DNA of 64,000 nt, taken from the UHGV virus genome UHGV-1366603. The stretch is one strand, 5' to 3'. The notes beneath the pieces were generated by a model, which saw nothing but the letters and a program-made list of their open reading frames with translations, had not been told where the DNA came from and did no database searches. Numbering within the stretch: position 1 is the stretch's first letter; every line of letters starts with the position of its first letter. Source of the stretch: a virus. The translations under genes and the position numbers were made by a program. Of the stretch, positions 4,379 to 23,465 are shown piece after piece.

Positions 4379-5230
4379 ATGTATCACCCGTATTATCTCC
4401 CGCACATTCTAGCAAATAGGGACCCTGGTTATTACTACGAACAAACAAAGGGGTCTTTTAATCGACTTTACATTCGCGAATTTAATACCGTCGAAATGAC
4501 GGATGACCAGTATCTGGAGTATCTAAAAGACCTTTACGGTTTTTCAAAATCGAATAAAGGTGACTTTGGACGTTCCGCAGTCATTAGGGTTGGTGAATAT
4601 CGTCATTTGGCTAAGCCTGTTACGTACCCTATTGTTACGCGTGCTTATACATCGGATAGGCAATATATTGCTGAACTAAAATTTCCTTTACGGATAGACG
4701 GGCCTCAAATTAGCGCTATAGAAGTAGAAATTCAACCAATTGCTGAAGACTATATTGAAGACTACTTCAAGAAAGCTAAAGAGGTACTCGAGGAGGGTTT
4801 AAGCTACTCTGAAGAAGGAACGATTTGTCTTCTCTCGTTACTCTCGAAGACTTATGTCACAGCAAATTTCCGTATCTCCGATTCTAGTAACTACAATACA
4901 CTTACTCCCTCTAAGACAAAACCGGTTTATTGGGACGATCGGTTAGTCGACAGACACCGTTGGCTTACTATCTTAGATAAAGTAAAATTCGAACCCCCTA
5001 AACACACCGAAGACAACTTTATTTTATTACACAACTTCGAACCGATCTATATCCCGACGCATTTTGAACAAGCCTTACGTCATCGATTGAAGTATGTGTT
5101 GGAATTACGGTACGGGAAGATAAACGGACTAACCTGTTCTGGTGAATTGAGTGAAGAAGAACGCGAGAAGATAAAAATCGTGTTTGATAAGTTGGTTGAA
5201 GATTACATTAAGAAGGAAGGACAATTATGA
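4379..5230 (+). CDS. Hypothetical protein
   Basis: 283-aa ORF with RBS aaggagga. Confidence 0.55.
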   Translation: MYHPYYLPHILANRDPGYYYEQTKGSFNRLYIREFNTVEMTDDQYLEYLKDLYGFSKSNKGDFGRSAVIRVGEYRHLAKPVTYPIVTRAYTSDRQYIAELKFPLRIDGPQISAIEVEIQPIAEDYIEDYFKKAKEVLEEGLSYSEEGTICLLSLLSKTYVTANFRISDSSNYNTLTPSKTKPVYWDDRLVDRHRWLTILDKVKFEPPKHTEDNFILLHNFEPIYIPTHFEQALRHRLKYVLELRYGKINGLTCSGELSEEEREKIKIVFDKLVEDYIKKEGQL

Positions 5231-5670
5231 AACCAAATTCTACTAACGGCATTATGTTACTTTGTGATTCTGAAACGTTAGCAAATCGTATTCGTGGTTT
5301 GATGGAAGTACGTTGGAAGCAAAAGGTTCGCGTGGATTACGCTGCTCCGTTTGTTCACGTTACTTGGTTACCAGAAGCTAGTGATTTCAAAGAAAGTATA
5401 ACCACGAGAAGAATTAAAGAATGGTTATCGGCAATCATTAATAAACAGATTACCGTTATCAATTTCCAACTTTTCGGGACTACTGAAGAACATGAAATCT
5501 TGAAACAGTGTTTAAGAGCGTTGGCTGTTTCCTTTTCTGTTCGTGGTAGCTGCTACACGGCTTACTTTATCGGTTCACTTGAACTGTTTAAGAATACGCT
5601 AATGCTTCAGCTAAAAGAAGACTACAAACTTTTAAATAAAATCGATTTTGAATTTCCAGGTATGATTTAA
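5227..5670 (+). CDS. Hypothetical protein
   Basis: 147-aa ORF; ATGA start-stop overlap with upstream gene. Confidence 0.5.
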   Translation: MKPNSTNGIMLLCDSETLANRIRGLMEVRWKQKVRVDYAAPFVHVTWLPEASDFKESITTRRIKEWLSAIINKQITVINFQLFGTTEEHEILKQCLRALAVSFSVRGSCYTAYFIGSLELFKNTLMLQLKEDYKLLNKIDFEFPGMI

Positions 5671-5680
5671 GGAGTATAAA

Positions 5681-6208
5681 ATGCATCAGAAATTAATGAC
5701 TAGTAACAAAGTTCTCCGTTTTAACCAACGTGAGTTAGAAGTTAGCGGAGAACGAATTGGTCGAGTTCGTAATCTTTTAACTGTGTTAGGTTTGGTCGGC
5801 GTTACATTTACATACACAGGTAAAATTCTTTACGCGACCTGGGCTTCATGCGAAAGTGACGCTACCTACGATAAAATTCTCGATGGTATTAAAGACGACT
5901 CAGTTTATTGTAATGTTTTCCGTGGCGTTTCGTACATCGTTGGTGATAAGTTAATGGATAAACTGAACGCCAAATACGGAGACGGTATTATCACCACCGT
6001 CTTCTTTGGTGGCGATATGCTAATCGTAACGAAAAAGGAAATTAGTCTGGAACTTCAAAGTGATATAAACTACGAACTTCAGATTGGCCCACAATTTAGC
6101 TGTAGAATTAATGTTGTTGTCGGTAAAGATGATTTCTACGATGAAGACGAGTCAGTAGAAATTCGAAAAATTGCGAGTCGCTACATGGATTCTATTTTCC
6201 GTAGTTAA
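5681..6208 (+). CDS. Hypothetical protein
   Basis: 175-aa ORF with RBS aaggag. Confidence 0.5.
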   Translation: MHQKLMTSNKVLRFNQRELEVSGERIGRVRNLLTVLGLVGVTFTYTGKILYATWASCESDATYDKILDGIKDDSVYCNVFRGVSYIVGDKLMDKLNAKYGDGIITTVFFGGDMLIVTKKEISLELQSDINYELQIGPQFSCRINVVVGKDDFYDEDESVEIRKIASRYMDSIFRS

Positions 6209-9453: not shown

Positions 9454-9885
9454 ATGAGAAAAGAACTAAAATCAGAGTTACGCGATTACATTCGTAAATA
9501 CCCAGCCAGTATTCCGGTACTGGCTTCACTCTCTCTGTCGGGTATGGACCTTAATACCTTAACGGTAGAAAAATTCCACGAAGTGGTAAAATCGTCGTAT
9601 CAAATTGTTACCGATATGTCGGTGCGGAAACGTGCTGATTACCCAGACGGTGATTTCGGTACAGAGATGTTCACAGACTACGCAGTTGCGTATCTGATGG
9701 GACGTCACTTTATCGATAAACTCAATACGGTTGTAGAAGGAGAAACAGTCACGGAAATTGTCAATGCTTGGCAACAACGTATTGTGAGTGACGCTTACTG
9801 TCGTCAAGCCTTAAAGAAAATGTCGGCGGTAGCATTAACCAATGACCAACGTGCTTTAGAGTTCCTTAAGCACAATTACGAATAA
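9454..9885 (+). CDS. Hypothetical protein, paralog of 10746..11177
   Basis: ATG at 9454 chosen over the track's GTG at 9442. N-terminus RKELKSELRDYIRKYP..VLA parallels LKDDIRNYIRNNP..VLA in the paralog. Confidence 0.5.
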   Translation: MRKELKSELRDYIRKYPASIPVLASLSLSGMDLNTLTVEKFHEVVKSSYQIVTDMSVRKRADYPDGDFGTEMFTDYAVAYLMGRHFIDKLNTVVEGETVTEIVNAWQQRIVSDAYCRQALKKMSAVALTNDQRALEFLKHNYE

Positions 9886-11344: not shown

Positions 11345-12193
11345 ATGTCTCTTACGTCAAAACAGAAACTGCTAAAACTCATCAACACTGAAAACAATAT
11401 TAGTCCACCGTTGACTTTCAGTGATGTTGATATCGGAGAACCTACCGGTACTGGGGTTGATACCCAGGTGGTTCTGACCTCTAAACTCAAAGGCGATGAG
11501 TCTACTACTTTAACAGTGACTTACCACCGTCGTAATTTACCTGACTACCTAACCGGCGAGTTGGTATTCGGTAACGACAGTGTGGTAACCGCATCGGATT
11601 TGCTTAATGCGATTAACGCAAAATACAACCTAAATATTTTACCCTCGGATATCGTTGACGCAAAAGTTGAAGGCGAAACCCATCAGCTTACCGCTAACGA
11701 GAAATCTTACGAGTGGTGCGGTGTAGTAACACTTACGCTGCGTGATCCTATTGACCTGACTGAACTGTTACCGGTTACACAATTAGAGAATCTGGTAGAG
11801 TATCCGTCCACGAAGAAAGGTAACGCGGCGGTTTATTCTCACCCGATTGATTTCACCGCAGAAAAAGATTACCTTGACCCGATTACTATCAACGACACCG
11901 TCGACCTGGCTGAGTTAGCCACTAAACTGGCTAACGTCGTTGATGAGAAATGGGTAAGCGTGCCTAAGAACGCGGCTAACAACCTGTTCGGTGCGAGGGT
12001 TATTTACGATGGTCCAACCGCAGGTTACGAAGGCGCAAATACGAAGTTCACACGTGTGTTGGTGCTGACGCTCAGCCCGCTGTGTTCTAACCTGACCGGT
12101 AATCTGTTAATCCACTTTAACGGCACCGATCGTCCGAAGTCGAAGATTGAATTAGCGCAGACTAATCCGGTCTTACCGGGATTCTTAGATTAA
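11345..12193 (+). CDS. Hypothetical protein, member of dispersed NTKVTLTA/Y-R-L family
   Basis: 282-aa ORF; N-terminal SDVDIGEPTG...TTLTVTYHRRNL. Confidence 0.5.
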   Translation: MSLTSKQKLLKLINTENNISPPLTFSDVDIGEPTGTGVDTQVVLTSKLKGDESTTLTVTYHRRNLPDYLTGELVFGNDSVVTASDLLNAINAKYNLNILPSDIVDAKVEGETHQLTANEKSYEWCGVVTLTLRDPIDLTELLPVTQLENLVEYPSTKKGNAAVYSHPIDFTAEKDYLDPITINDTVDLAELATKLANVVDEKWVSVPKNAANNLFGARVIYDGPTAGYEGANTKFTRVLVLTLSPLCSNLTGNLLIHFNGTDRPKSKIELAQTNPVLPGFLD

Positions 12194-12206
12194 GAGGATT
12201 ACAGTA

Positions 12207-12704
12207 ATGGCCAATCAAGAAACTATCTTCGACCTTATTAAAAAGGCTAACCCAGACGCCGAGTTCGACACCACTAAAGTCACGCTGGGTGATCCGGTCG
12301 TAACCACTGGTACTTACAATACCGAAATTACGGTTGCGTCGATTAAGAATCTCGGTTACACTAACAAACAAACGTTCCAGTATAACCGCATTGACGCAGG
12401 TTTGTATTTCCTGAACGTATTACCGAAGCTGTTAGTGGAGTCTGCAACGACTACCGCTGACTTACTGCCCGTCATTAACGAGCAGTACAGCCTAACCCTT
12501 ACAGAAGACGACGTGTGGGTAGAACAGGTTGGTGAGTTACCGTTAGACGGTAGCGCAATCGAACACGGTATTTTCTTCCGTCCTGAATGTTTAACCTGGG
12601 TAGGCGGTTTTACGGTGCGCGTTGCACGTAAACCTGCTGAAGATGTTGAACCTGCGCCGAAAGCAGCTAAAGCACGTACAACTCGTGCACGAAAATCCAA
12701 GTAA
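12207..12704 (+). CDS. Hypothetical protein, same family, with Lys/Arg-rich C-terminal tail
   Basis: 165-aa ORF; TKVTLGDPVV...TFQYNRID; C-terminus PKAAKARTTRARKSK. Confidence 0.5.
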   Translation: MANQETIFDLIKKANPDAEFDTTKVTLGDPVVTTGTYNTEITVASIKNLGYTNKQTFQYNRIDAGLYFLNVLPKLLVESATTTADLLPVINEQYSLTLTEDDVWVEQVGELPLDGSAIEHGIFFRPECLTWVGGFTVRVARKPAEDVEPAPKAAKARTTRARKSK

Positions 12705-12708
12705 GATT

Positions 12709-12746
12709 TGGGTGGGGTAAAACCCACCCAACGTTTTTCTTTTTTG
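12709..12746 (+). terminator. Intrinsic terminator
   Basis: Hairpin tgggtgggg-taaaa-ccccaccca followed by T-run. Confidence 0.7.
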
Positions 12747-12768
12747 TGTAAAATGGGAGTTAAACAAA

Positions 12769-13359
12769 ATGGCTGAACGTTGGACTAAAGAAGGTATTAT
12801 TGAATCCAAAACGGATTTAGAAGGCGGGTACGTCAACGACCCTGACGATTTAGGTGCAGAAACGAACCACGGTATCACGGTAACGACTGCACGTGAGTAC
12901 GGTTATAAAGGGAAAATGAAAGACCTTACCCGTACTCAAGCATTCGATATCTACGATCGTGGTTGGTGGAAGAAACTCAAACTCGATGAGATTTTCGCTA
13001 TCTCGCCTTTACTGGCTGACAGAATGTTTGATTTCGGGATTAACGCAGGGCGTGCTAACTGTGTGAAATCGCTACAGCGTATTCTCAACGTGTTGAACAA
13101 CGAAGGTAAACTCTACGCGGACATCGATGTTGACGGTGGAATGGGGCCTAAAACGCTGGGTGCGTTGAACGCGTACCTGAAATACCGTAAAGATGAAGGG
13201 CTAAGCATTTTAATCTTTGCGTTAATCTCGCACCAAGTAACTTACTACACGGAAATCTCCGAGAAACGTAAGCGAAACGAGAAATACACCTACGGCTGGT
13301 ACGGCCGCGTGTTCAGAGAAATGGCAGATTATGCGGTAAAAGCGGGGTTAGTAAAATGA
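12769..13359 (+). CDS. Endolysin: GH108-like lysozyme with C-terminal peptidoglycan-binding domain
   Basis: N-terminal EGGYVNDPDDLGAETNHGIT is characteristic of glycoside hydrolase family 108; C-terminal region resembles a PG_binding_3-type domain. Confidence 0.75.
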   Translation: MAERWTKEGIIESKTDLEGGYVNDPDDLGAETNHGITVTTAREYGYKGKMKDLTRTQAFDIYDRGWWKKLKLDEIFAISPLLADRMFDFGINAGRANCVKSLQRILNVLNNEGKLYADIDVDGGMGPKTLGALNAYLKYRKDEGLSILIFALISHQVTYYTEISEKRKRNEKYTYGWYGRVFREMADYAVKAGLVK

Positions 13360-15234: not shown

Positions 15235-15372
15235 AATCTCACCCTTATTAAAATTAAGAAAAATTATTTTTTCAGGTTAGCGCCTACTGCCAACCGTCAT
15301 ATCTATATTTTAGTAAATGTCTAAAATAACTTTCTTATGCAATCCACCCCTACCACTTACGAGGTAAAAACG

Positions 15373-15909
15373 ATGGCTAAAGCCTTCAATCAGCAGCTTA
15401 TCGAAGCTGTAAAAGCCAAAAACCCTGAAACTGCTTCTAATCTAACCGTAGAAGACGTTGACTTTGGTGCCGTAGAAGCACATAGCGGAAACGGTGGCCG
15501 TAACACCAAAGTTACGCTGACTGCAAAAGAAGAAAGTGCTAACTTTACTGGCAGTAAAGAATTCCACTACACTCGTCTGGCTTCTCAAGATCTGATCGGT
15601 GCCAAAGCTTACGAACAAGCCGGTAGCCTCGATCTGGAAAACTCTGTCATCGTAACCAAACTCAACGAAGAAATGGTTACTAAAGGTTATACCGATGACG
15701 CTTTCGCTGAAGGCGAACTGACCATTGAGAAAACTGAAGGGGATAGCGGCGCTAAAGTTTACACCGTTAAAGTAAACGATGCACACATTAAATTCCTGGC
15801 TGGTACTATTGCCGTCTTCACTTATTCCAACCCAGCTCCTGAGAAGGTAGCACTGAGCGGTCTGGAAGGTGAACTTGATGGCTTCACTGCACCGGGTGTC
15901 GGTGGCTAA
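15373..15909 (+). CDS. Hypothetical protein, NTKVTLTA family, paralog of 15980..16510
   Basis: Start at ATG 15373 (RBS gaggtaaaaacg). Shares NTKVTLTA...(F)HYxRL and C-terminal GELDGFTA with the next gene. Confidence 0.55.
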   Translation: MAKAFNQQLIEAVKAKNPETASNLTVEDVDFGAVEAHSGNGGRNTKVTLTAKEESANFTGSKEFHYTRLASQDLIGAKAYEQAGSLDLENSVIVTKLNEEMVTKGYTDDAFAEGELTIEKTEGDSGAKVYTVKVNDAHIKFLAGTIAVFTYSNPAPEKVALSGLEGELDGFTAPGVGG

Positions 15910-15979: not shown

Positions 15980-16510
15980 ATGGCCGCTACTAACCAGATG
16001 ATGTTGGTCGCGCTTTATAATGCTGCTAACACTGAGCTACCGCATCAGATTACTGATAAAGAAGTGTCCTTTGGTCTCCCTACTGCGCTGGAAGGCGAAA
16101 GTAAGAATACCAAAGTTACCATGACTGCACTACCGGGTTCTGAGAATTTCAAAGGCGAAATCGAACTGCATTACGATCGTCTGGAGCCGGGTGTTGTAGG
16201 ACGGATTGAACTAACTGACGATCTGTCTCGCTGGGTTCAAGAAAATGAACTCCGCGCTTGGTTACAATATTACATCAACAAAGTAAAACCTGACGACGCT
16301 ATCGCACCAGGCGACGTTGTGTACAACACCGAAGACCAGAAAGACGAACATGAAAACGTCACTCTGCGTACCGTGACGTGCACCGTTACCGAAAAGAACC
16401 TCCGTTATAAACCGGGTGTAATGGCAACTTTCGTAATTACACCGAAGGTTGTCGATAATCGTATTGACCTGGCCACCACCAACGGTGAGTTGGACGGTTT
16501 TACTGCTTAA
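15980..16510 (+). CDS. Hypothetical protein, NTKVTLTA family
   Basis: 176-aa ORF; NTKVTMTALPGSENFKGEIELHYDRL; ends GELDGFTA. Confidence 0.55.
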   Translation: MAATNQMMLVALYNAANTELPHQITDKEVSFGLPTALEGESKNTKVTMTALPGSENFKGEIELHYDRLEPGVVGRIELTDDLSRWVQENELRAWLQYYINKVKPDDAIAPGDVVYNTEDQKDEHENVTLRTVTCTVTEKNLRYKPGVMATFVITPKVVDNRIDLATTNGELDGFTA

Positions 16511-16540: not shown

Positions 16541-16573
16541 ATAAGTTTACCTACCTCCGTAAAGGAGGTAGGT
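16541..16573. terminator. Bidirectional intrinsic terminator; 3' end of the long minus-strand operon
   Basis: Hairpin acctacctcc-gtaa-aggaggtaggt with T-runs on both sides. Confidence 0.7.
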
Positions 16574-16589
16574 ATTTTTTTGCCGCTAA

Positions 16590-17261
16590 TTACAGCCCTT
16601 GCTCTAATGCAAACGCTTTAATTGAATCGTAATCACGGGCTTCGGCCCAAGCTCTGACTTCTTTTTTCTGTTCCGTCATTGCCTGATGCAGTTGCTGGTC
16701 GCGTTGCACAATAGCACCCAACAGTGTTTTGCACTGCTCTACCGTAAACGGTTCGATACGGGTGTTGTTGGCCGTTAACCAGTACGCTGGCGCGGTTTCT
16801 GATTGAATATAACGACTCAGCGCTACCTGTGACTTCTCATCTGCCTGGAAAGTGAAATCACCCACCTGAATCTCGGCATAGCGCGCATCCTGATAACGGA
16901 ATTCCAATGCGCTCAGGATTTTCTGAACATCGGTAAAGATATAGCGTACGGTGGAACGTAACCCCGTACGAATCTCTTCCAAGTCAATTCCCAACGTGTC
17001 GTTAACAAAGTCTTTCGCTTTCTGTAGCGTAAAACGAGCTTCGATTTCAGACATGTCGTAGTTACGCATTTGTTCCAACGCTTCACGATCAGACATCCCA
17101 TCAATCAATTTATAGTGCAGTAACGCGCAAAAACCCGTACGACCATGATCTTCGCTACCGATTTTTTCCATATAGTTACCATGGCGGTCAATCGGTAAAT
17201 CGTGCTCAAAATAACGACGACGGATTTCTTCTTTCGTTAAGCCTTCACCAGTAGCAGACAT
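16590..17261 (-). CDS. Hypothetical protein, last gene of radical SAM cassette
   Basis: 223-aa ORF overlapping the upstream gene by 25 nt. Confidence 0.55.
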   Translation of the reverse strand: MSATGEGLTKEEIRRRYFEHDLPIDRHGNYMEKIGSEDHGRTGFCALLHYKLIDGMSDREALEQMRNYDMSEIEARFTLQKAKDFVNDTLGIDLEEIRTGLRSTVRYIFTDVQKILSALEFRYQDARYAEIQVGDFTFQADEKSQVALSRYIQSETAPAYWLTANNTRIEPFTVEQCKTLLGAIVQRDQQLHQAMTEQKKEVRAWAEARDYDSIKAFALEQGL

Positions 17262-17809
17262 TCATCGTCTCCTTTAATCAATCCTAATTCGATTAACAGT
17301 TCAAAATCGATATGGCGGAATCTTGTATCGAAATCCGATTCCCAATCGATGCGGATACCCTGGCACTCTTCTGCCGTTAGCTCGGGAAAAATTACGGTAT
17401 TAAATTTCTCACGCTCATCGTAAAACCCATCAATCGGTGAGTTCGGGTTACGCGTTGCGAAAATAGTAATACCGGGGAAAGATAATGCTAACACAGTGAT
17501 AGACTCTGCGCTGGGTTCGCTTAAAGAGCGGCGTAGAAACGCAATTTTGTGGCGTGGGAAGTCCAATACGCGTTCTTCAAACCCTGGATTACGTTTTTCG
17601 ATTTCCGCTACCGACAGGTCAGTAAGTTCGGTGCAATACATTGGGATGATTACAGTCACGCCGTGGCGAATCATTAAACGTTTTACGTCATCAGTAAAAT
17701 CTTCACCGTTAATCATCACGTAACAACCGAATAGCTTACTGTTCTCCAGAAACTTATCCAGAAGTCGAATTCTACGCTTCGTAATATTGTTGATCAGAAT
17801 TGGTTTCAT
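17237..17809 (-). CDS. Hypothetical protein in radical SAM cassette
   Basis: 190-aa ORF overlapping the radical SAM gene 3' end. Confidence 0.5.
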   Translation of the reverse strand: MKPILINNITKRRIRLLDKFLENSKLFGCYVMINGEDFTDDVKRLMIRHGVTVIIPMYCTELTDLSVAEIEKRNPGFEERVLDFPRHKIAFLRRSLSEPSAESITVLALSFPGITIFATRNPNSPIDGFYDEREKFNTVIFPELTAEECQGIRIDWESDFDTRFRHIDFELLIELGLIKGDDECLLLVKA

Positions 17810-19094
17810 CTTTGGCTTCTCTTAATAATTTTTCCTTTTGGGCGCGTTCACGAACACAGCGTGGGCAATAACACATACTCGTGTCGTGGAACGCTTTTGC
17901 TGACGTCGTACCCATCTTCTGTTTCCAGTATTCCGCCACCATCAGTTTCGCTGTCGTCCAGCCGCACTGACGTCGCTCAGCGTGATACGCTTTACGGTCT
18001 TCCAGTGTCCCTTCACCGTTTTCGTAAGAAGCCGCAGCGCAGCTACCACAAGCGTGCTTCATCGGACAACCTAAACAAGTCTCTGGATAGTTGGTATATT
18101 GTGTTTGAATCTCTTCTAACAATTTACCGTTGTCCAGACTGACGAATTCCCGACCTACCAACTCAAATACCGCAGAACGCGACGTTACGGTTGACATAAA
18201 GCGATTGCAACCGAAGATCTTACGATCAAATCCTAAACACGTCATGTGCGTTAATGTCCCACAGAACGGACGTAAACGTTCTGGGTTCAACCGTACTGTG
18301 TCATTATAAAGTAATTGGTCACGCCAGTTCGGTTCCCAAATCGTATCGAAATCCAACCCTTCTGGAATGATATGCGATAAGATATTACGTGGGTTGGTGT
18401 GTAATCCTTTCTCGACCCAATAATCAATCACATCCATCATCTGCAATGCAATTGAAGTAGCCATGCCGCGTGGCATAATGTCTTCGAAGGTTACGTTGCC
18501 GGAGATAGTTCCGCCACCAGTAATATCAATTAATGACTTCATTCCGGCAGCATAGTACGGTAACGTTTCTAACGTAAAGGTCGCCTTTACGCCAAGCTCT
18601 GCAATGCCAACCTCTTTTAAGTAGTTATAGCCTCGTACTGCGGCTTCGTAAGAACCCTGGCGCGTCGTTGTAAAGATACGATAACGGTCATGGGACTCAG
18701 GTAAGCCGTCAATTGAAACCCCAACCGAAAGTTTGTCTTTCCAACGCTCTACGATCTCACGGTTCAACGGGCGATCTAACAACGTCCCGTTTGTGGAAAT
18801 ACTAAACATAAACGGCCGATTATGTTCTTTACACAACTGCTCGGCGGTTTCAAATGCAGCCAGCAGCAACTTAGGCTGCATGAACGGTTCACCACCGATA
18901 ATGTCGATAATAACTTCAACATTCGGTTCGTTTTTATCACGTTCAAAACAGGCGTGCAAGAAATCAACAATATCTGCCGCTTTGTTGTTACGCGGGTACT
19001 TACGTTCGTAACAATATTCGCAGTCCAGGTTACACGAAAGATTCGTTACAATCTGATACGTTAGCTGCTTAGGGAATTCATTTACTTGACTCAT
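17772..19094 (-). CDS. Radical SAM enzyme with C-terminal SPASM-like Cys-rich domain
   Basis: CNLDCEYC (CxxxCxxC) near N-terminus; IGGEPF SAM-binding motif; C-terminal CLGCPMKHACGSC plus additional Cys (CGTLTHMTC, CYCPRC) fit an auxiliary Fe-S SPASM-type domain. Confidence 0.8.
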   Translation of the reverse strand: MSQVNEFPKQLTYQIVTNLSCNLDCEYCYERKYPRNNKAADIVDFLHACFERDKNEPNVEVIIDIIGGEPFMQPKLLLAAFETAEQLCKEHNRPFMFSISTNGTLLDRPLNREIVERWKDKLSVGVSIDGLPESHDRYRIFTTTRQGSYEAAVRGYNYLKEVGIAELGVKATFTLETLPYYAAGMKSLIDITGGGTISGNVTFEDIMPRGMATSIALQMMDVIDYWVEKGLHTNPRNILSHIIPEGLDFDTIWEPNWRDQLLYNDTVRLNPERLRPFCGTLTHMTCLGFDRKIFGCNRFMSTVTSRSAVFELVGREFVSLDNGKLLEEIQTQYTNYPETCLGCPMKHACGSCAAASYENGEGTLEDRKAYHAERRQCGWTTAKLMVAEYWKQKMGTTSAKAFHDTSMCYCPRCVRERAQKEKLLREAKDETNSDQQYYEA

Positions 19095-20001
19095 TTGCCG
19101 CCCCTCTATTACGCCCTGCCATCACTACGCGACGAATATATTCGTAAGCCTCTACACCGATAGAGAAGGCCAGTTGGTTACACCCGGATTCCAGTACGTT
19201 AGGTGCATTCTGGAGCTGGTGCTCACCACCGTCTGCATTAATCCAGAGACTTTCGCTGCAAACGTTACAGCCTTCTTCAAACACTTTACTTACCGTAAAA
19301 CCACATTCACGTCTGTTTACTACATTCAGTCGTTCAATGTTGTCCTGAACCTGATAGTAGCCGTAAATAAAGTTCATGACGTGGTCAGGTGATAACGGTT
19401 TTGGCATTTTCGCATCTAAGAGTAACGTCATTGCTCGGAAACCGTAATGGTAAATCGCGCTATGCAGCTGAATAATATCTTCATGCCAACGTTTATCCCC
19501 CAAACGGTCCCGTGTCAAGACACCCCAAGTCTGGACATTATCCAGCTCGTAGATCGTTTCCAGTGCTTCGTAACAGCCTTCGTCAATAAAGCGCATAAAT
19601 GGACGCTCAGACGACTTAAACCCATCGATGCTAACGTAGACATTGTCAAACTGTTTTAGCAACGGGAGATGCGATTTACGCATCTTTAAGCCATTGGTAT
19701 ACAACTGGTGTTTGAGTTCTGGACGAATCACTTTTAATTCGTCAACAAACGCCTCAATTTTACGGGTTGCCAGTAATGGCTCACCACCCGTCCACTGAAT
19801 TTCGGTAATGGTTGGATTAGCTTCCAACGCTTCCAAAATTCGCTCACGTTGAAACTCTCGCGGAGAATCTTCACGATTCATGTAATAGGCTCCACCGCAG
19901 AAGCTACAATCCAGGTTACACTTGGACGTAGCGACTACGGACAATACGGTGGGTTTATCGTATAAACGATTCGATAACCTTGGTTCTGCATTGGTTGTCA
20001 T
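19078..20001 (-). CDS. Radical SAM enzyme (second, shorter)
   Basis: CNLDCSFCGG (CxxxCxxC) and TGGEPLL motifs; C-terminal Cys cluster CGFTV...CNVCSES...SGCNQ. Confidence 0.8.
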   Translation of the reverse strand: MTTNAEPRLSNRLYDKPTVLSVVATSKCNLDCSFCGGAYYMNREDSPREFQRERILEALEANPTITEIQWTGGEPLLATRKIEAFVDELKVIRPELKHQLYTNGLKMRKSHLPLLKQFDNVYVSIDGFKSSERPFMRFIDEGCYEALETIYELDNVQTWGVLTRDRLGDKRWHEDIIQLHSAIYHYGFRAMTLLLDAKMPKPLSPDHVMNFIYGYYQVQDNIERLNVVNRRECGFTVSKVFEEGCNVCSESLWINADGGEHQLQNAPNVLESGCNQLAFSIGVEAYEYIRRVVMAGRNRGAANESSK

Positions 20002-20022
20002 TGCAGGTGACTCCGGTCGTTT

Positions 20023-20922
20023 TTAAATATAATCAATGGCGAACAAAGGATCGTCGTCTACGTTAGCACCAGGGGTTAACAAGAATGGAGAGTTATACGC
20101 TTCCAAAATACGGTTAAGGTCTTTATAACGGACATTTAAACGTTCTAAATCCGCTAACGTTACGTTACGGTCCAACACCGCCGACACTGCTGCTTTCTCT
20201 TCGTCAGTTAACGTGACTTTCGTCATTAAGAAACTAACGAGTTTTGCCAGATCCGCTTCTGTTGACGGATGCTCGCCAATACGTGTTTGAATCAAATGCT
20301 GCATCCAAGGCTTACGGATGCGTTTTGTGATTTCGTGCTCATCCGTCAGGGCAACCCACACAGAACGTTCACGATCCCACACGAACTTATAGCTATACGC
20401 CATTAAATCCGCTAAGCAATTAATCCCTAACGCTTCGTACCCTTCAATTTCGATATACGATTCCGTATCGAAATAGTTCTTCGTTTCTGGTGTTACCAGG
20501 GTAAAGAAATACGGGAACGAGCCTAAGTAATCCGGCGACCACCAACGACGGGCAACCGGTTTTGCACCCATTTCTTCAAACGGGGTAAAGAACAATTCCA
20601 TATCTACGGAGTTATTCAAAATCCCGTCACTAAAGAAATATTTACCTGCAACCAATTTACCACGCAACTCGGAGTCACCGGTAAAGACCACTACACTTTC
20701 TGCCGCCAGATCACGAATCTTAAACGTATTTTCTACACGATAGTTTTTACGATCGGTAAAGAAACGTCCGCGCACTTTAGGCCATTCGCCTGGCAATTGC
20801 GTCAGCAGACGAACTTCATCTGCTAAGTGTGCACGTACGGAATCAGGGGAAGAAATGTGAAGTGGATGATTGAAAATCGTTTTGTACGCTAAATGTAAAT
20901 CATTCTTCATTGATTGCTCCAA
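20023..20922 (-). CDS. Hypothetical protein in radical SAM cassette
   Basis: 299-aa ORF, directly abutting the 77-aa gene. Confidence 0.55.
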   Translation of the reverse strand: MEQSMKNDLHLAYKTIFNHPLHISSPDSVRAHLADEVRLLTQLPGEWPKVRGRFFTDRKNYRVENTFKIRDLAAESVVVFTGDSELRGKLVAGKYFFSDGILNNSVDMELFFTPFEEMGAKPVARRWWSPDYLGSFPYFFTLVTPETKNYFDTESYIEIEGYEALGINCLADLMAYSYKFVWDRERSVWVALTDEHEITKRIRKPWMQHLIQTRIGEHPSTEADLAKLVSFLMTKVTLTDEEKAAVSAVLDRNVTLADLERLNVRYKDLNRILEAYNSPFLLTPGANVDDDPLFAIDYI

Positions 20923-21156
20923 CTATTTTACGGTCAAACGGACGTTCAGGGTATAGAACCCACCCCGCCATTGTCTGCCGGTAACTTGAAACTCAGCAGT
21001 AAACCCATTCGATTTACTCGGTTGCTGGTTAATCGCCATACTACCGCCGGAATTACTTAAAACCTCTAAAGAGATAGAAGCAGAAGTCGCATTACCGATT
21101 GAGTCTATCTTAAAACTAGCCGCATCTGTAAAATTGACAGTAATACCATCACCCAT
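20923..21156 (-). CDS. Hypothetical small protein
   Basis: 77-aa ORF between Cys-rich genes and the modification-enzyme genes. Confidence 0.45.
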   Translation of the reverse strand: MGDGITVNFTDAASFKIDSIGNATSASISLEVLSNSGGSMAINQQPSKSNGFTAEFQVTGRQWRGGFYTLNVRLTVK

Positions 21157-21178
21157 CGCAACTTGGGGAAAGGCTTAC

Positions 21179-21385
21179 TTACCGCCCCCCTGCTCCCTTA
21201 CTACAGCTACCGCTGCACGACCAGCTACATCCACCGTTACAGTTGTAGTGGCTTAAAGGTAAACCGGCAAGGTTATTGGTTGAAGACACGGTACCCTGGT
21301 TTGCAATATAGTTGTTTGCGTTAGCGGTCGTAATATACCCTTCCGCTGTTACTAAACGATCACGAAGGTTCTTAAGGCTAATCAC
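21179..21385 (-). CDS. Cys-rich precursor-like protein C (short core)
   Basis: GTG start at 21383-21385 preceded by GGGAGG, which overlaps the stop of gene B. Translation (V)ISLKNLRDRL...HYNCNGGCSWSCSGSCSKGAGGR shares the leader motif and CGGSCSW core start with A and B. Confidence 0.55.
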   Translation of the reverse strand: MISLKNLRDRLVTAEGYITTANANNYIANQGTVSSTNNLAGLPLSHYNCNGGCSWSCSGSCSKGAGGR

Positions 21386-21387
21386 AA

Positions 21388-21786
21388 TTACCTCCCAGAA
21401 CACCCACCGGAACAAGAACCTGAACAGCCTGAAGAACAGTTCCCTGTACACGCGTTAGAACAGCTCCCCGTGCAACTTCCTGAACACCCACCGGAGCAGG
21501 TATTCGAACATCCGCTACAGCCCGCGCTACAACCTGATACGCAGTTTGCAGAACACGAGGAACCACAACCACCGGATGCGTTTCCTGTGCAGCCACCAGA
21601 ACAACTCGAACACGTCCAGCTACAACTACCTCCGCAGTCGTAGTGATTGCGGGCCTGTCCTCCGAATAAGTCTGCGTTGTTTGTCGCTTTCCCGCGAATA
21701 TAGTTTTGTACTGCACCCGTATTCTTCAATGCAGTGCTGTCAATGTTATTTAACCGCGCTTGTAGCGCAGGTAATCCAATTGCCAT
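21388..21786 (-). CDS. Cys-rich precursor-like protein B (~50-aa leader plus ~80-aa Cys/Gly/Ser core)
   Basis: RBS agaggtg. Core begins HYDCGGSCSWTCS and continues with about 20 Cys at mostly CxxxC spacing, ending GGCSGR. Confidence 0.65.
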   Translation of the reverse strand: MAIGLPALQARLNNIDSTALKNTGAVQNYIRGKATNNADLFGGQARNHYDCGGSCSWTCSSCSGGCTGNASGGCGSSCSANCVSGCSAGCSGCSNTCSGGCSGSCTGSCSNACTGNCSSGCSGSCSGGCSGR

Positions 21787-21796
21787 TTTTCACCTC

Positions 21797-22192
21797 TTAG
21801 GTTGGACCAGAACAGCCGCCAGAGCAGGCACCAGAACAACCCGTAGAACAACGGCCTGAGCAAGCACCCCCACAAGTTCCGCTACAACCTGAACACCCAC
21901 CTGAACACGTTGAGCTACATCCAGTACATTGGTTACCGCACGCAGAGGAGCAGCTGCCTACACACACAGACGTACAAGTACCCGAACAGCTCGTACAACC
22001 ATGCGTACAGCCGTTTGAGCACGTCCAGCTACAACTACCTCCGCAGTCTAACCGGTTTGGCGTCCAACCCGAAAATGTATCGGCTGCATTATGTGCTTTC
22101 GACGCAACTTGCGGATCAACACGTGGGCCAGTTGCCATTTGGTTCTCTACGTTGGTGATTCGGTCACGTACGTTTTTAACACTGATCGCCAT
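21797..22192 (-). CDS. Cys-rich precursor-like protein A
   Basis: ATG at 22190-22192 with RBS aagga (track ORF begins one codon earlier at GTG). Leader MAISVKNVRDRITNVENQ...; core NRLDCGGSCSWTCSNGC... ending SGGCSGPT. Confidence 0.65.
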   Translation of the reverse strand: MAISVKNVRDRITNVENQMATGPRVDPQVASKAHNAADTFSGWTPNRLDCGGSCSWTCSNGCTHGCTSCSGTCTSVCVGSCSSACGNQCTGCSSTCSGGCSGCSGTCGGACSGRCSTGCSGACSGGCSGPT

Positions 22193-22259
22193 CACGTATC
22201 CTTAAAATAAAAAAGAATGGAGGACTACGTCCATAAACATAGTTCCTCCTGTAATTAAA

Positions 22260-23465
22260 TTATTTTGTACCCGCTTCCGCCTGTACGTCATCACGAGACG
22301 TCAGGTTAGCGTTAACGTGTACTGGGGCCTGAACCACACCACCGTATCTCTTGTGGAGATAACCGCTGTGCGGGTTATCTGCCGCGATGTGGTTTTGTAG
22401 GTTCTGGTTCGCTTGACTGATTGCGTTCGTGTTATTGTTAACTTGCTGTTTAAGCGCATCCAGGTTCTGTTGTACCTGATCGATTTTCTGATCGGTTTCT
22501 TGACCCTGTTGCTCTAACGCGGCAACACGCTGAATAACCTGATTCAGTTTTGTGTTTAAATCGTTGATGCTCTTTTGCAGTTGTAACACTAACGAGTTCA
22601 GGTTCGCTAACGCTAATGCCATTTTCTGGTAGTTTTGAGCAACCACGTTAAGTTGGTCGTTCCACGCTTCCAGAGAGTTGACAACAGCGTCAATACGCTT
22701 ACCTAAAGCTTCGTCCGCTTTCTTCAGTGCATTGATTTCCGTAATCGTTGCGTCGATAGCAGACTGGACGTCACGGATAAGCGCACGGATTTCAGTTTCC
22801 GTTAACCCGTTAACCTGATGGATATCAAGATGGTGAACGTTACCGGTTGAGTTAATGTGTGCATTTAAAGCGTCTAAGAAGTCATTTTTCAGGCTTTCTA
22901 AAATCGCTTTAATGTTCTCTAACTGTACTGCGTCACCAGAACTAATAGCATCTTTAATACCCGCCAATACGGTAATGATATATTCAAAACCGTAGATGTC
23001 ACCCACGTCTTTATACGTCGGTGCAGACGGGAATGTATCCGGTACGTTACGCAAGTCTTTAAACGCAATCGTACGGTTATCGAGGTTTAATTCAGCAATC
23101 GCCTGTTCGATAGCCACGATGTTCGCAGACTGTGGGCCACCAACGACCTGCGCAGATACTGTAATATCTGTTGGAATCGCTGTGTTAGTGACCACCACCG
23201 CCATAACAATCTCGCGGTTTTTAGTCAGCTTTTCATAAGTCGGGTGTGCAAAAATCAACTCATAATCGGTACCACGTTCGTAGGTTGCATCCGGTCGGTT
23301 AGCAACGCGTAAACGGAACGTGTCCGCAAAGAACGGGCCGTCAGGAAAAGCAAAAGCACGGTTTACTTTACCTGTACCTAACGTAATCTGACGCTCCACA
23401 GCGTTAGACGTTAGCGAGCCCGTTAAATCTAAAGGATATTGATAAACAATGGAGGCCATGGCCAC
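22260..23465 (-). CDS. Tail fibre protein with N-terminal anchor module and long coiled-coil shaft
   Basis: N-terminal FPDGPFFADTFRLRV...GTDYELIF resembles the N-termini of the three large upstream proteins; residues ~230-360 are heptad-rich (LNTKLNQVIQRVAALEQQGQETDQKIDQVQQNLDALKQQ). Confidence 0.6.
   Translation of the reverse strand: MAMASIVYQYPLDLTGSLTSNAVERQITLGTGKVNRAFAFPDGPFFADTFRLRVANRPDATYERGTDYELIFAHPTYEKLTKNREIVMAVVVTNTAIPTDITVSAQVVGGPQSANIVAIEQAIAELNLDNRTIAFKDLRNVPDTFPSAPTYKDVGDIYGFEYIITVLAGIKDAISSGDAVQLENIKAILESLKNDFLDALNAHINSTGNVHHLDIHQVNGLTETEIRALIRDVQSAIDATITEINALKKADEALGKRIDAVVNSLEAWNDQLNVVAQNYQKMALALANLNSLVLQLQKSINDLNTKLNQVIQRVAALEQQGQETDQKIDQVQQNLDALKQQVNNNTNAISQANQNLQNHIAADNPHSGYLHKRYGGVVQAPVHVNANLTSRDDVQAEAGTK

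Follow-up and report, generated by a model that had tools for sequence, protein, structure and literature searches.

PapB (freyrasin) and CteB (thermocellin) are SPASM-type radical S-adenosylmethionine (radical-SAM) enzymes that link Cys to carbon by thioethers within repeated Cys motifs. In QhpD/QhpC, a radical-SAM/SPASM enzyme puts intramolecular Cys thioethers into the small subunit of quinohemoprotein amine dehydrogenase. The CXXX-repeat system is described by NCBIfam models for its targets (TIGR04114, TIGR04117 and TIGR04118), its maturase (TIGR04115) and accessory proteins (TIGR04119 and TIGR04116), with the Pfam repeat family PF27846 as counterpart of TIGR04114. Here we analyze a gene cassette of the virus genome UHGV-1366603, read over a stretch of 64,000 nucleotides (hereafter the window), in which three genes for Cys-rich proteins, termed A, B and C, lie together with the genes of two radical-SAM enzymes, rSAM1 and rSAM2. 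Sequence evidence strongly supports a substrate-plus-maturase locus of the radical-SAM/SPASM peptide-maturase type. Beyond this, and with the chances evenly balanced, we favor a reading of the Cys-rich proteins as radical-SAM-modified, cross-linked structural proteins associated with the tail and not as exported peptides.

The window DNA is approximately 72% identical to Salmonella phage SPN3US and related Seoulvirus-type jumbo phages. Five of its genes carry the argument:

21797-22192, minus strand: Cys-rich A, 131 aa with 21 Cys; Shine-Dalgarno sequence AAGGA; phrog_6085, E 1.7e-40
21388-21786, minus strand: Cys-rich B, 132 aa with 20 Cys; Shine-Dalgarno sequence AGAGGTG; phrog_6085, E 1.6e-39
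21179-21385, minus strand: Cys-rich C, 68 aa with 4 Cys, GTG start; phrog_6085, E 2.3e-24
19078-20001, minus strand: rSAM2, 307 aa; motifs CNLDCSFC and GGEP; Pfam Radical_SAM, 53.0 bits
17772-19094, minus strand: rSAM1, 440 aa; motifs CNLDCEYC, GGEP and CLGCPMKHACGSC; Pfam Radical_SAM, 57.0 bits

In paralogue A, the first 49 aa form an N-terminal module, and the remaining 82 aa are the CXXX-repeat region, which holds all 21 Cys. The 82-residue C-terminal regions of A and B are composed almost entirely of Cys, Gly, Ser and Thr, with a Cys content of 24-26% and no Asp or Glu, and successive Cys lie four residues apart in 17 of the 20 gaps of A and in 16 of the 19 gaps of B. Paralogue C carries only the first CxxxCSWxC motif and two more Cys, and its Shine-Dalgarno sequence, GGGAGG, is located within the end of B. 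Among the PHROGs the three proteins match phrog_6085 only, a family without an assigned function. When compared to the TIGR04114 model of CXXX-repeat targets, B marginally reached the cut-off of 20 bits (20.7 bits) and A stayed under it (14.4 bits); the repeat pattern, in contrast to the score, assigns them clearly to the targets. A supposed resemblance of the N-terminal module to a common tail-fibre motif, 'NAxxLxG...HY', was dropped, as a profile search found no generic fibre.

The ratio of nonsynonymous to synonymous substitution rates (dN/dS) of the Cys-rich genes was 0.03-0.09 for those closer pairs that could be computed (0.04-0.08 for A); synonymous sites were saturated between the compared phages, and purifying selection on the Cys frame is strong, far in excess of what chance would give. 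Nearly every Cys aligned with a Cys in a comparison to nine other phages, and the N-terminal module was under constraint equal to that of the core. All 20 Cys of B were kept in 8 other phages, A possessed exactly 21 Cys in each of 28 orthologous loci, and the orthologues of C, with 2-5 Cys, were present in all loci examined. The Cys-rich ORFs were also found in SPN3US, the Erwinia phage pEa_SNUABM_29, CR5, Derbicus, Wellington, Phobos, pEa_SNUABM_11 and SPAsTU. In Machina, A and C were detected and B was missed by the motif filter, yet a 393-nt coding sequence is annotated at the place of B. In the SPN3US genome (L001, NC_027402) the three genes, at 12167-13196 (12804-13196, 12389-12793 and 12167-12373, minus strand), are unannotated in both GenBank and RefSeq, and gp166 (ACQ60_gp100) has been called there in a different frame of the same strand. 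As detected by tblastn, many related GenBank records have no feature, wrong-frame ORFs or opposite-strand ORFs over the Cys-rich genes. Because dN/dS is low, because Cys, starts and stops are kept across four genera (Seoulvirus, Machinavirus, Derbicusvirus and Wellingtonvirus), and because each ORF has a Shine-Dalgarno sequence, the Cys-rich ORFs are to be taken as real genes. The three adjacent Cys-rich paralogues proposed by the initial annotation, which had been made from the letters alone, are thus affirmed.

That annotation had also named two radical-SAM enzymes, and a Pfam profile search bore this out: both scored well above the cut-off of the Radical_SAM model (PF04055), which is 29.5 bits. 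The CNLDCEYC, CNLDCSFC and GGEP motifs are invariant across the four genera. The top NCBIfam match of rSAM1 was the CXXX maturase model TIGR04115 (E 1.4e-33, 116.9 bits, model positions 3-345 of 359), followed by PapB (E 2.2e-33) and further peptide maturases; the QhpD family model TIGR03906 was matched with E 6.5e-17, and the best solved relative was CteB (PDB 5WGG, E 8e-15). In an hhalign comparison, a profile of ten rSAM1 orthologues was aligned to a bona fide TIGR04115 member over 323 columns (99.1%, E 5e-19), and the auxiliary-cluster motifs C...C and CX2CX5CX2C were aligned as well. By these profiles rSAM1 is clearly homologous to TIGR04115 over its full length, though outside equivalog membership; comparator enzymes scored 630 bits (L006) and 378.6 bits (the gut-phage locus L015) against this model.

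The invariant Cys of rSAM1 are residues 21, 25, 28, 278, 286, 296, 340, 343, 349, 352, 377, 408, 410 and 413. C278/C286/C296, C340-x2-C343-x5-C349-x2-C352 and C377 fit the SPASM pattern with one spacing shortened; in SPASM domains (PF13186, TIGR04085) two auxiliary 4Fe-4S clusters are bound by seven C-terminal Cys (C...G-x4-C, CX2CX5CX3C, C). Since the CX3CX2C motif starts at residue 21, rSAM1 is without an N-terminal RRE-like domain. Past the SPASM-like region, a C-terminal CxCxxC (C408, C410 and C413; 17772-17900) is invariant in the ten orthologues; this may be an extra metal site outside the TIGR04115 model.

In rSAM2, C28/C32/C35, GGEP and C245/C248/C274 are invariant, and its C-terminus with the last three of these Cys appears twitch-like. 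Profile matches in the PDB were 8VPO (E 1e-10), SkfB, MoaA, YydG and BtrN, and QueE, viperin and NrdG-type enzymes were matched too; rSAM2 is unrelated to the TIGR04119 protein. In L019 (3575-4486) and L034, two IMG/VR phages whose rSAM1 is 93% identical to that of the window, a 303-aa rSAM2 paralogue lies directly between A and B.

Enzymes and Cys-rich genes occurred together in all 28 orthologous loci that were read directly, from the four genera, and the Cys-rich trio was contained in 18 of 18 orthologous IMG/VR loci. With tblastn, 60 phage records matched the N-terminal module of the Cys-rich proteins and 62 contained an rSAM1 orthologue; the gap is made up by the two records of Cronobacter phage CR5, in which the three Cys-rich ORFs were present on inspection. 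The gene order is the same throughout the four genera: fibre genes, a tail protein of approximately 400 aa, A, B, C, a phrog_8030 protein, rSAM2, rSAM1, a phrog_7988 protein and a DUF4376 protein. The co-occurrence of precursor and enzyme genes, for which the initial annotation had recommended a look at related phages, is therefore found in every orthologous locus, with synteny over four genera. The same five families stand, in unchanged order, in a remote phage as well (L013 and L014). As these are shared, we define the core cassette as the Cys-rich genes plus those of the phrog_8030 protein, rSAM2, rSAM1 and the phrog_7988 protein. The DUF4376 gene, absent from L013, and a 77-aa ORF of the window are, on their distribution, not part of this core. 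The L013 region additionally holds a third, unrelated radical-SAM-like gene (394 aa, 4651-5835) approximately 5 kb upstream, and an Acb2/Tad1-hairpin-family gene (9600-9821) just ahead of the Cys-rich genes.

More distant viral loci were collected by scanning IMG/VR for TIGR04115-type enzymes. At least 215 viral contigs were found, of which the best 80 loci were inspected. In 75 of these 80, a CXXX-run ORF was located on the strand of the enzyme and within approximately 5 kb of it, mostly less than 3 kb; these ORFs encode 100-880 aa, among them as many as 89 Cys. Remote phage homologues of the Cys-rich proteins match PF27846. In P0084, P0090 and P0091 the N-terminal module is preceded by domains of approximately 95 aa matching PHROG tail-fibre or tail-assembly families (for P0084 and P0091, tail-fibre phrog_5073 with E~2e-5), while the paralogue-C-type proteins P0067 and P0075 continue after a short Cys motif into a folded C-terminal domain of 80-140 aa. 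The CXXX protein of L069 has an architecture of N-domain, CXXX region and C-terminal domain, and a protein of 813 aa from L110 (1554-3992) unites a CXXX region with two Gly-rich domains. Such domains, of the ALK_LTK_GRD type (phrog_1589 and phrog_5811), were seen in gut-phage contigs either fused to CXXX, as in L110, or in an adjoining gene, as in L015 (5762-6646).

In the four contexts checked (L015/L016, L039, L069 and L049), the CXXX loci all lie among tail or baseplate genes. L015/L016 display three tail-fibre genes, the Gly-rich protein, the CXXX protein and then a bona fide TIGR04115 enzyme (the 378.6-bit comparator); L039 displays a baseplate wedge gene, a phrog_2163 fibre-like protein, the enzyme, the CXXX protein and a tail protein. 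Minor-tail or fibre-like genes are directly upstream in L069 and L049, and a tail protein is found upstream of P0090 in L017. We tentatively extend the structural reading to the whole group, a generalization that we consider possible but more probably wrong than right: CXXX-repeat proteins would constitute a class among the tail or fibre proteins of phages, in which radical-SAM/SPASM enzymes turn a Gly/Ser/Cys 'shaft' into a thioether-laddered rod, and this class would be widespread from SPN3US-like jumbo phages to many gut phages.

For the window cassette, the mechanism could be as follows. The three Cys-rich proteins would serve as substrates of both adjoining radical-SAM enzymes. rSAM1 would most likely abstract an H atom from acceptor residues and link Cys sulfur to carbon, giving thioethers along the C-x-x-x repeats of the sactionine type, with a bond to the alpha-carbon, or of the ranthionine type, with a bond to a beta- or gamma-carbon; by analogy, a Cys-to-carbon thioether is the most likely chemistry. 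The 80-residue Gly/Ser/Thr/Cys stretch would thereby become a redox-independent covalent ladder that is formed in the reducing cytoplasm. rSAM2 might add a second modification or serve particular paralogues, and the phrog_8030 and phrog_7988 proteins might be substrate-presenting or scaffold partners. The product would carry an attachment or oligomerization module at its N-terminus and, distal to it, a cross-linked rod or knot, and would be assembled with the neighboring fibre or baseplate proteins of the gp167-170 type.

The remaining features of the locus are:

upstream of the 401-aa gene: three genes of 1727, 1394 and 1440 aa, homologues of SPN3US gp168-170
22260-23465, minus strand: 401-aa tail protein, homologue of SPN3US gp167; phrog_2163, E 1.6e-102; directly upstream of the cassette
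22204-22249, minus strand: hairpin with U-tract, terminator- or attenuator-like, between the 401-aa gene and Cys-rich A
20923-21156, minus strand: 77-aa ORF, candidate gene (ORF only)
20023-20922, minus strand: phrog_8030 protein, homologue of SPN3US gp165, 299-aa ORF; probable ATG at 20910, 295 aa
17237-17809, minus strand: phrog_7988 protein, 190 aa, homologue of SPN3US gp162
16590-17261, minus strand: DUF4376 protein, 223 aa, homologue of SPN3US gp161; Pfam DUF4376, E 2.5e-11
16548-16574, no strand given: bidirectional terminator-like hairpin with an 11-bp stem, end of the minus-strand unit

All nine minus-strand ORFs of the cassette were confirmed in the layout first proposed, with short gaps or overlapping ends; the overlaps comprise 17 nt (rSAM2/rSAM1), 38 nt (rSAM1/190-aa protein) and 25 nt (190-aa/223-aa protein). 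The phrog_8030 ORF is present as predicted, but its start is probably the ATG at 20910, which gives 295 aa as in the orthologues instead of 299 aa. No protease-like fold was found in the two unknown accessory proteins. The DUF4376 protein, encoded by the last gene of the unit, gave weak matches to PHROG tail and tail-fibre families and is probably a fibre-assembly factor outside the core cassette. The 77-aa ORF exists, but its standing as a gene is doubtful: it had no family match in Pfam, NCBIfam or PHROGs and no tblastn match in 50,697 phage records, and SPN3US has no room for it. It weakly resembles (E 0.007) the end of the C-terminal extension that paralogue C carries in L038, a syntenic 222-kb phage in which paralogue C is a 210-aa ORF with a C-terminal domain of approximately 140 aa (P0067, 7001-7633). 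The 68-aa paralogue C of the window and the 77-aa ORF, which is in another frame, may thus represent a split or decayed fusion. As to the 401-aa protein, orthology to the phrog_2163 protein of L039 was rejected, since the BLASTP match covered only 86 aa (E 3e-4); both are fibre-like.

The hairpin at 22204-22249 has a dG of -19.4 kcal/mol (z -4.4), shows compensatory changes at 6 of 13 pairs across 6 phages, and has 86.5% of the alignment cells paired, compared to 39-53% with the partners slid. It may terminate or attenuate transcription, or stabilize the upstream message. This conserved hairpin and its U-tract upstream of Cys-rich A weaken the proposal of a single transcription unit with the fibre genes. 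In a scan for sigma-70 promoters, sites were no commoner than in shuffled sequence; these phages use their own RNA polymerases.

On the plus strand, two tandem paralogues ending in GELDGFTA (15337-15909 and 15980-16510) converge on the cassette, and their counterparts in L038 are annotated with DUF7941. The SPN3US protein gp160 (18.5 kDa) is an abundant head protein. On these grounds, the cassette abuts head-protein genes of the opposite strand. Over the radical-SAM genes, nucleotide identity to the best records of the phage collection was approximately 72% only, and no record of this collection covered at least 80% of the query. A 225-kb IMG/VR genome encodes an rSAM1 that is 99% identical to that of the window and probably represents this very phage. 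A Salmonella enterica assembly contains an annotated protein 98% identical to the 190-aa protein, which suggests Salmonella as host of the window phage.

Published SPN3US proteomics bears on the products of this region. In a comparison of wild-type and tailless particles, gp167-171 were assigned to the Tail class (PMC5694885, PMC10052503), and gp168 resembles phiKZ gp131, a protein of the baseplate periphery (PMC5105663, PMC5694885, PMC10052503). The homologues of the DUF4376 protein, the 190-aa protein and rSAM1 (gp161, gp162 and gp163) were classified as non-virion proteins with 3-4 peptide-spectrum matches (PMC5694885, PMC10052503); this detection indicates that they are expressed. gp164-166 are not among the listed virion proteins of SPN3US (PMC5105663, PMC5694885, PMC10052503). 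The absence of the Cys-rich proteins from these lists is uninformative, as their ORFs are unannotated and their cores have no tryptic sites.

Several points weigh against the Cys-rich proteins being cross-linked tail components. We infer the cross-link chemistry, the division of work between the enzymes and the incorporation into virions. At 117 bits, rSAM1 is far below the TIGR04115 equivalog cut-off of 350, and the Pfam SPASM model (PF13186) gave no match to rSAM1, neither over the full protein nor when the C-terminal half alone was searched at E<=10; the assignment of a SPASM-like C-terminus, noted initially, is based on the invariant Cys pattern and the hhalign result, and not on the stand-alone hidden Markov model, to which even a bona fide TIGR04115 enzyme gave no more than a weak match (14.9 bits). 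We know of no characterized product of the CXXX family, and PapB and CteB are the models from which we extrapolate the thioether. When 1.84 billion representatives were searched with a profile of the three N-terminal modules of the window, only 31 proteins were retrieved, with no generic tail fibres among them; the 31 belong to the same family or are spurious repeat proteins (P0081, P0083, P0092 and P0093). The conserved terminator-like hairpin parts the cassette from the fibre genes. Furthermore, the position beside fibre genes holds in four genera but not in the remote cassette of L013/L014, whose neighbors are a nucleotidyltransferase, Acb2-like, GIY-YIG and GroEL genes. Long N-terminal leader domains, such as those of the Nif11 and NHLP types, occur in true RiPPs (peptides that are made by the ribosome and modified after translation) as well.

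One alternative is a phage-encoded RiPP, with a leader of approximately 50 aa and a modified Cys-rich core that a host protease would cut off and lysis would set free, to act as a toxin, a signal or a peptide against competitors. The layout resembles leader and core beside RiPP-type maturases, the closest families bear the annotation of RiPP maturases, clusters of RiPP genes typically hold several paralogous precursors, and the L013/L014 cassette lies amid non-structural and anti-defence-type genes. However, no protease (peptidase), exporter, immunity gene or signal peptide was found in the cassette with Pfam, NCBIfam and PHROGs, the cores are at least 80 aa long and those of relatives can extend over several hundred aa between folded domains, selection constrains the N-terminal module as strongly as the core, and the association recurs in tail or baseplate contexts of independent phages. 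We therefore regard this explanation as unlikely. Concordantly, the initial annotation's precursor-plus-maturase locus is retained on the grounds of profiles and synteny, while its division into leader and core is doubtful because the N-terminal module sits behind fibre-like domains in some relatives and folded domains follow the Cys motif in others. Its preference for a virion component over a secreted toxin gains indirect support from the missing export functions, from the relatives amid tail genes and from the Tail class of gp167-171. The least unlikely alternative, though still improbable, is that the proteins are modified by the enzymes and stay outside the virion, as chaperones or scaffolds of fibre assembly or as metal- or Fe-S-binding, metallothionein-like infection factors. 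A content of 20-21 Cys per 80 residues is reminiscent of metal-binding proteins, non-virion neighbors, the DUF4376 protein for example, resemble assembly factors, and no proteomic data place the Cys-rich proteins in virions. Against this, their relatives show fibre-like modular architectures with terminal globular domains, and metal binding alone needs no two dedicated, strictly linked radical-SAM enzymes.

It is very unlikely that the enzymes act elsewhere, on the giant fibres or in nucleotide or cofactor metabolism, with the Cys-rich proteins as unmodified, disulfide-bonded bystanders. Adjacency is no proof of an enzyme-substrate relation, and the profile matches of rSAM2 do include MoaA, QueE, viperin and NrdG-type enzymes. 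Yet the pairing persists where giant fibre genes are lacking, in L013 and in the minimal versions of gut phages, rSAM1 is homologous to a maturase family that is defined by CXXX targets, and the rSAM2 duplicate sits between two precursor genes; disulfides would also be unexpected in the cytoplasm, the site of virion assembly. That the Cys-rich ORFs are not genes at all but a by-product of a low-complexity GC-rich repeat has a negligible probability. The overlapping ORFs annotated in other frames or on the other strand, gp166 in SPN3US and further ones in several Erwinia-phage records, could be read in this way, but selection analysis, the conserved Cys, starts and stops, and the Shine-Dalgarno sequences effectively refute it.

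If the Cys-rich proteins are indeed cross-linked tail components, this would represent a new post-translational chemistry in virion assembly and, to our knowledge, the first enzyme-installed radical cross-links in a virion structural protein. Disulfides do not form in the reducing cytoplasm, whereas radical-SAM cross-linking does operate there. Should the reading hold for the whole group, at least some of the bacterial 'CXXX-repeat RiPP' family would consist of structural proteins and not of natural products. Cross-linked fibre elements that resist proteases and reductants could be relevant to the stability, the host range and the engineering of phages. The analysis offers a role for two genes that are annotated as 'radical SAM superfamily' and left unexplained in SPN3US-like phages, brings to light three conserved genes that the annotations of the model phage SPN3US and many of its relatives lack or place in a wrong frame, and connects an NCBIfam 'RiPP' family that is uncharacterized with tail modules of phages, in hundreds of viral contigs. 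Amber-mutant genetics of SPN3US in combination with deep proteomics makes the hypothesis directly testable.

The initial annotation did not recognize the arrangement as a described phage module, and our literature searches likewise found no description of the cassette in the searchable literature. Among known systems, it is most instructively compared to the CXXX-repeat system. As in that system, Cys occurs at every fourth residue with small residues between, and there are several target paralogues per locus; the window enzyme shares the CX3CX2C core and the CX2CX5CX2C auxiliary-cluster motif of the TIGR04115 maturase. A reference locus of this kind is L006 (MT837480, 'Bacteriophage sp.', 6.8 kb), in which a CXXX protein with a Tat signal is followed by TIGR04115, TIGR04119 and TIGR04116 proteins. 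ORFs resembling TatA and TatC adjoin there, and this bacterial-looking CXXX locus is possibly not viral. Unlike the L006 target, the phage Cys-rich proteins have no signal peptide and possess their own conserved N-terminal module. The accessory families TIGR04119 and TIGR04116, both present in L006, gave no match at E<=0.1 to the cassette proteins, and the phage system instead has a second radical-SAM enzyme and the phrog_8030 and phrog_7988 proteins, which were found only in this clade and in L013/L014.

The differences to the biochemically described enzymes are larger. rSAM1 scores far under the family cut-offs of PapB and CteB; its residue 21 aligns to CteB residue 105, so that approximately 100 preceding residues are missing, and it carries the extra invariant CxCxxC. 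The substrates of PapB and CteB comprise at most 45 aa, whereas those of the phage comprise 68-132 aa. QhpD provides a precedent for a SPASM maturase that acts on a subunit of a protein complex rather than on a secreted peptide, although it belongs to another family, has another substrate, and its target is a periplasmic enzyme subunit and not a virion protein. The capsid 'chainmail' of HK97 is formed by autocatalytic isopeptide cross-links. It is similar in that a phage structural protein would be covalently hardened, an analogy only, as here dedicated radical-SAM enzymes and tail-associated targets would be involved. Altogether, these comparisons identify the cassette, at the level of sequence families and gene order, as a phage-specific and divergent form of the CXXX-repeat radical-SAM system, which is itself defined by bioinformatics.

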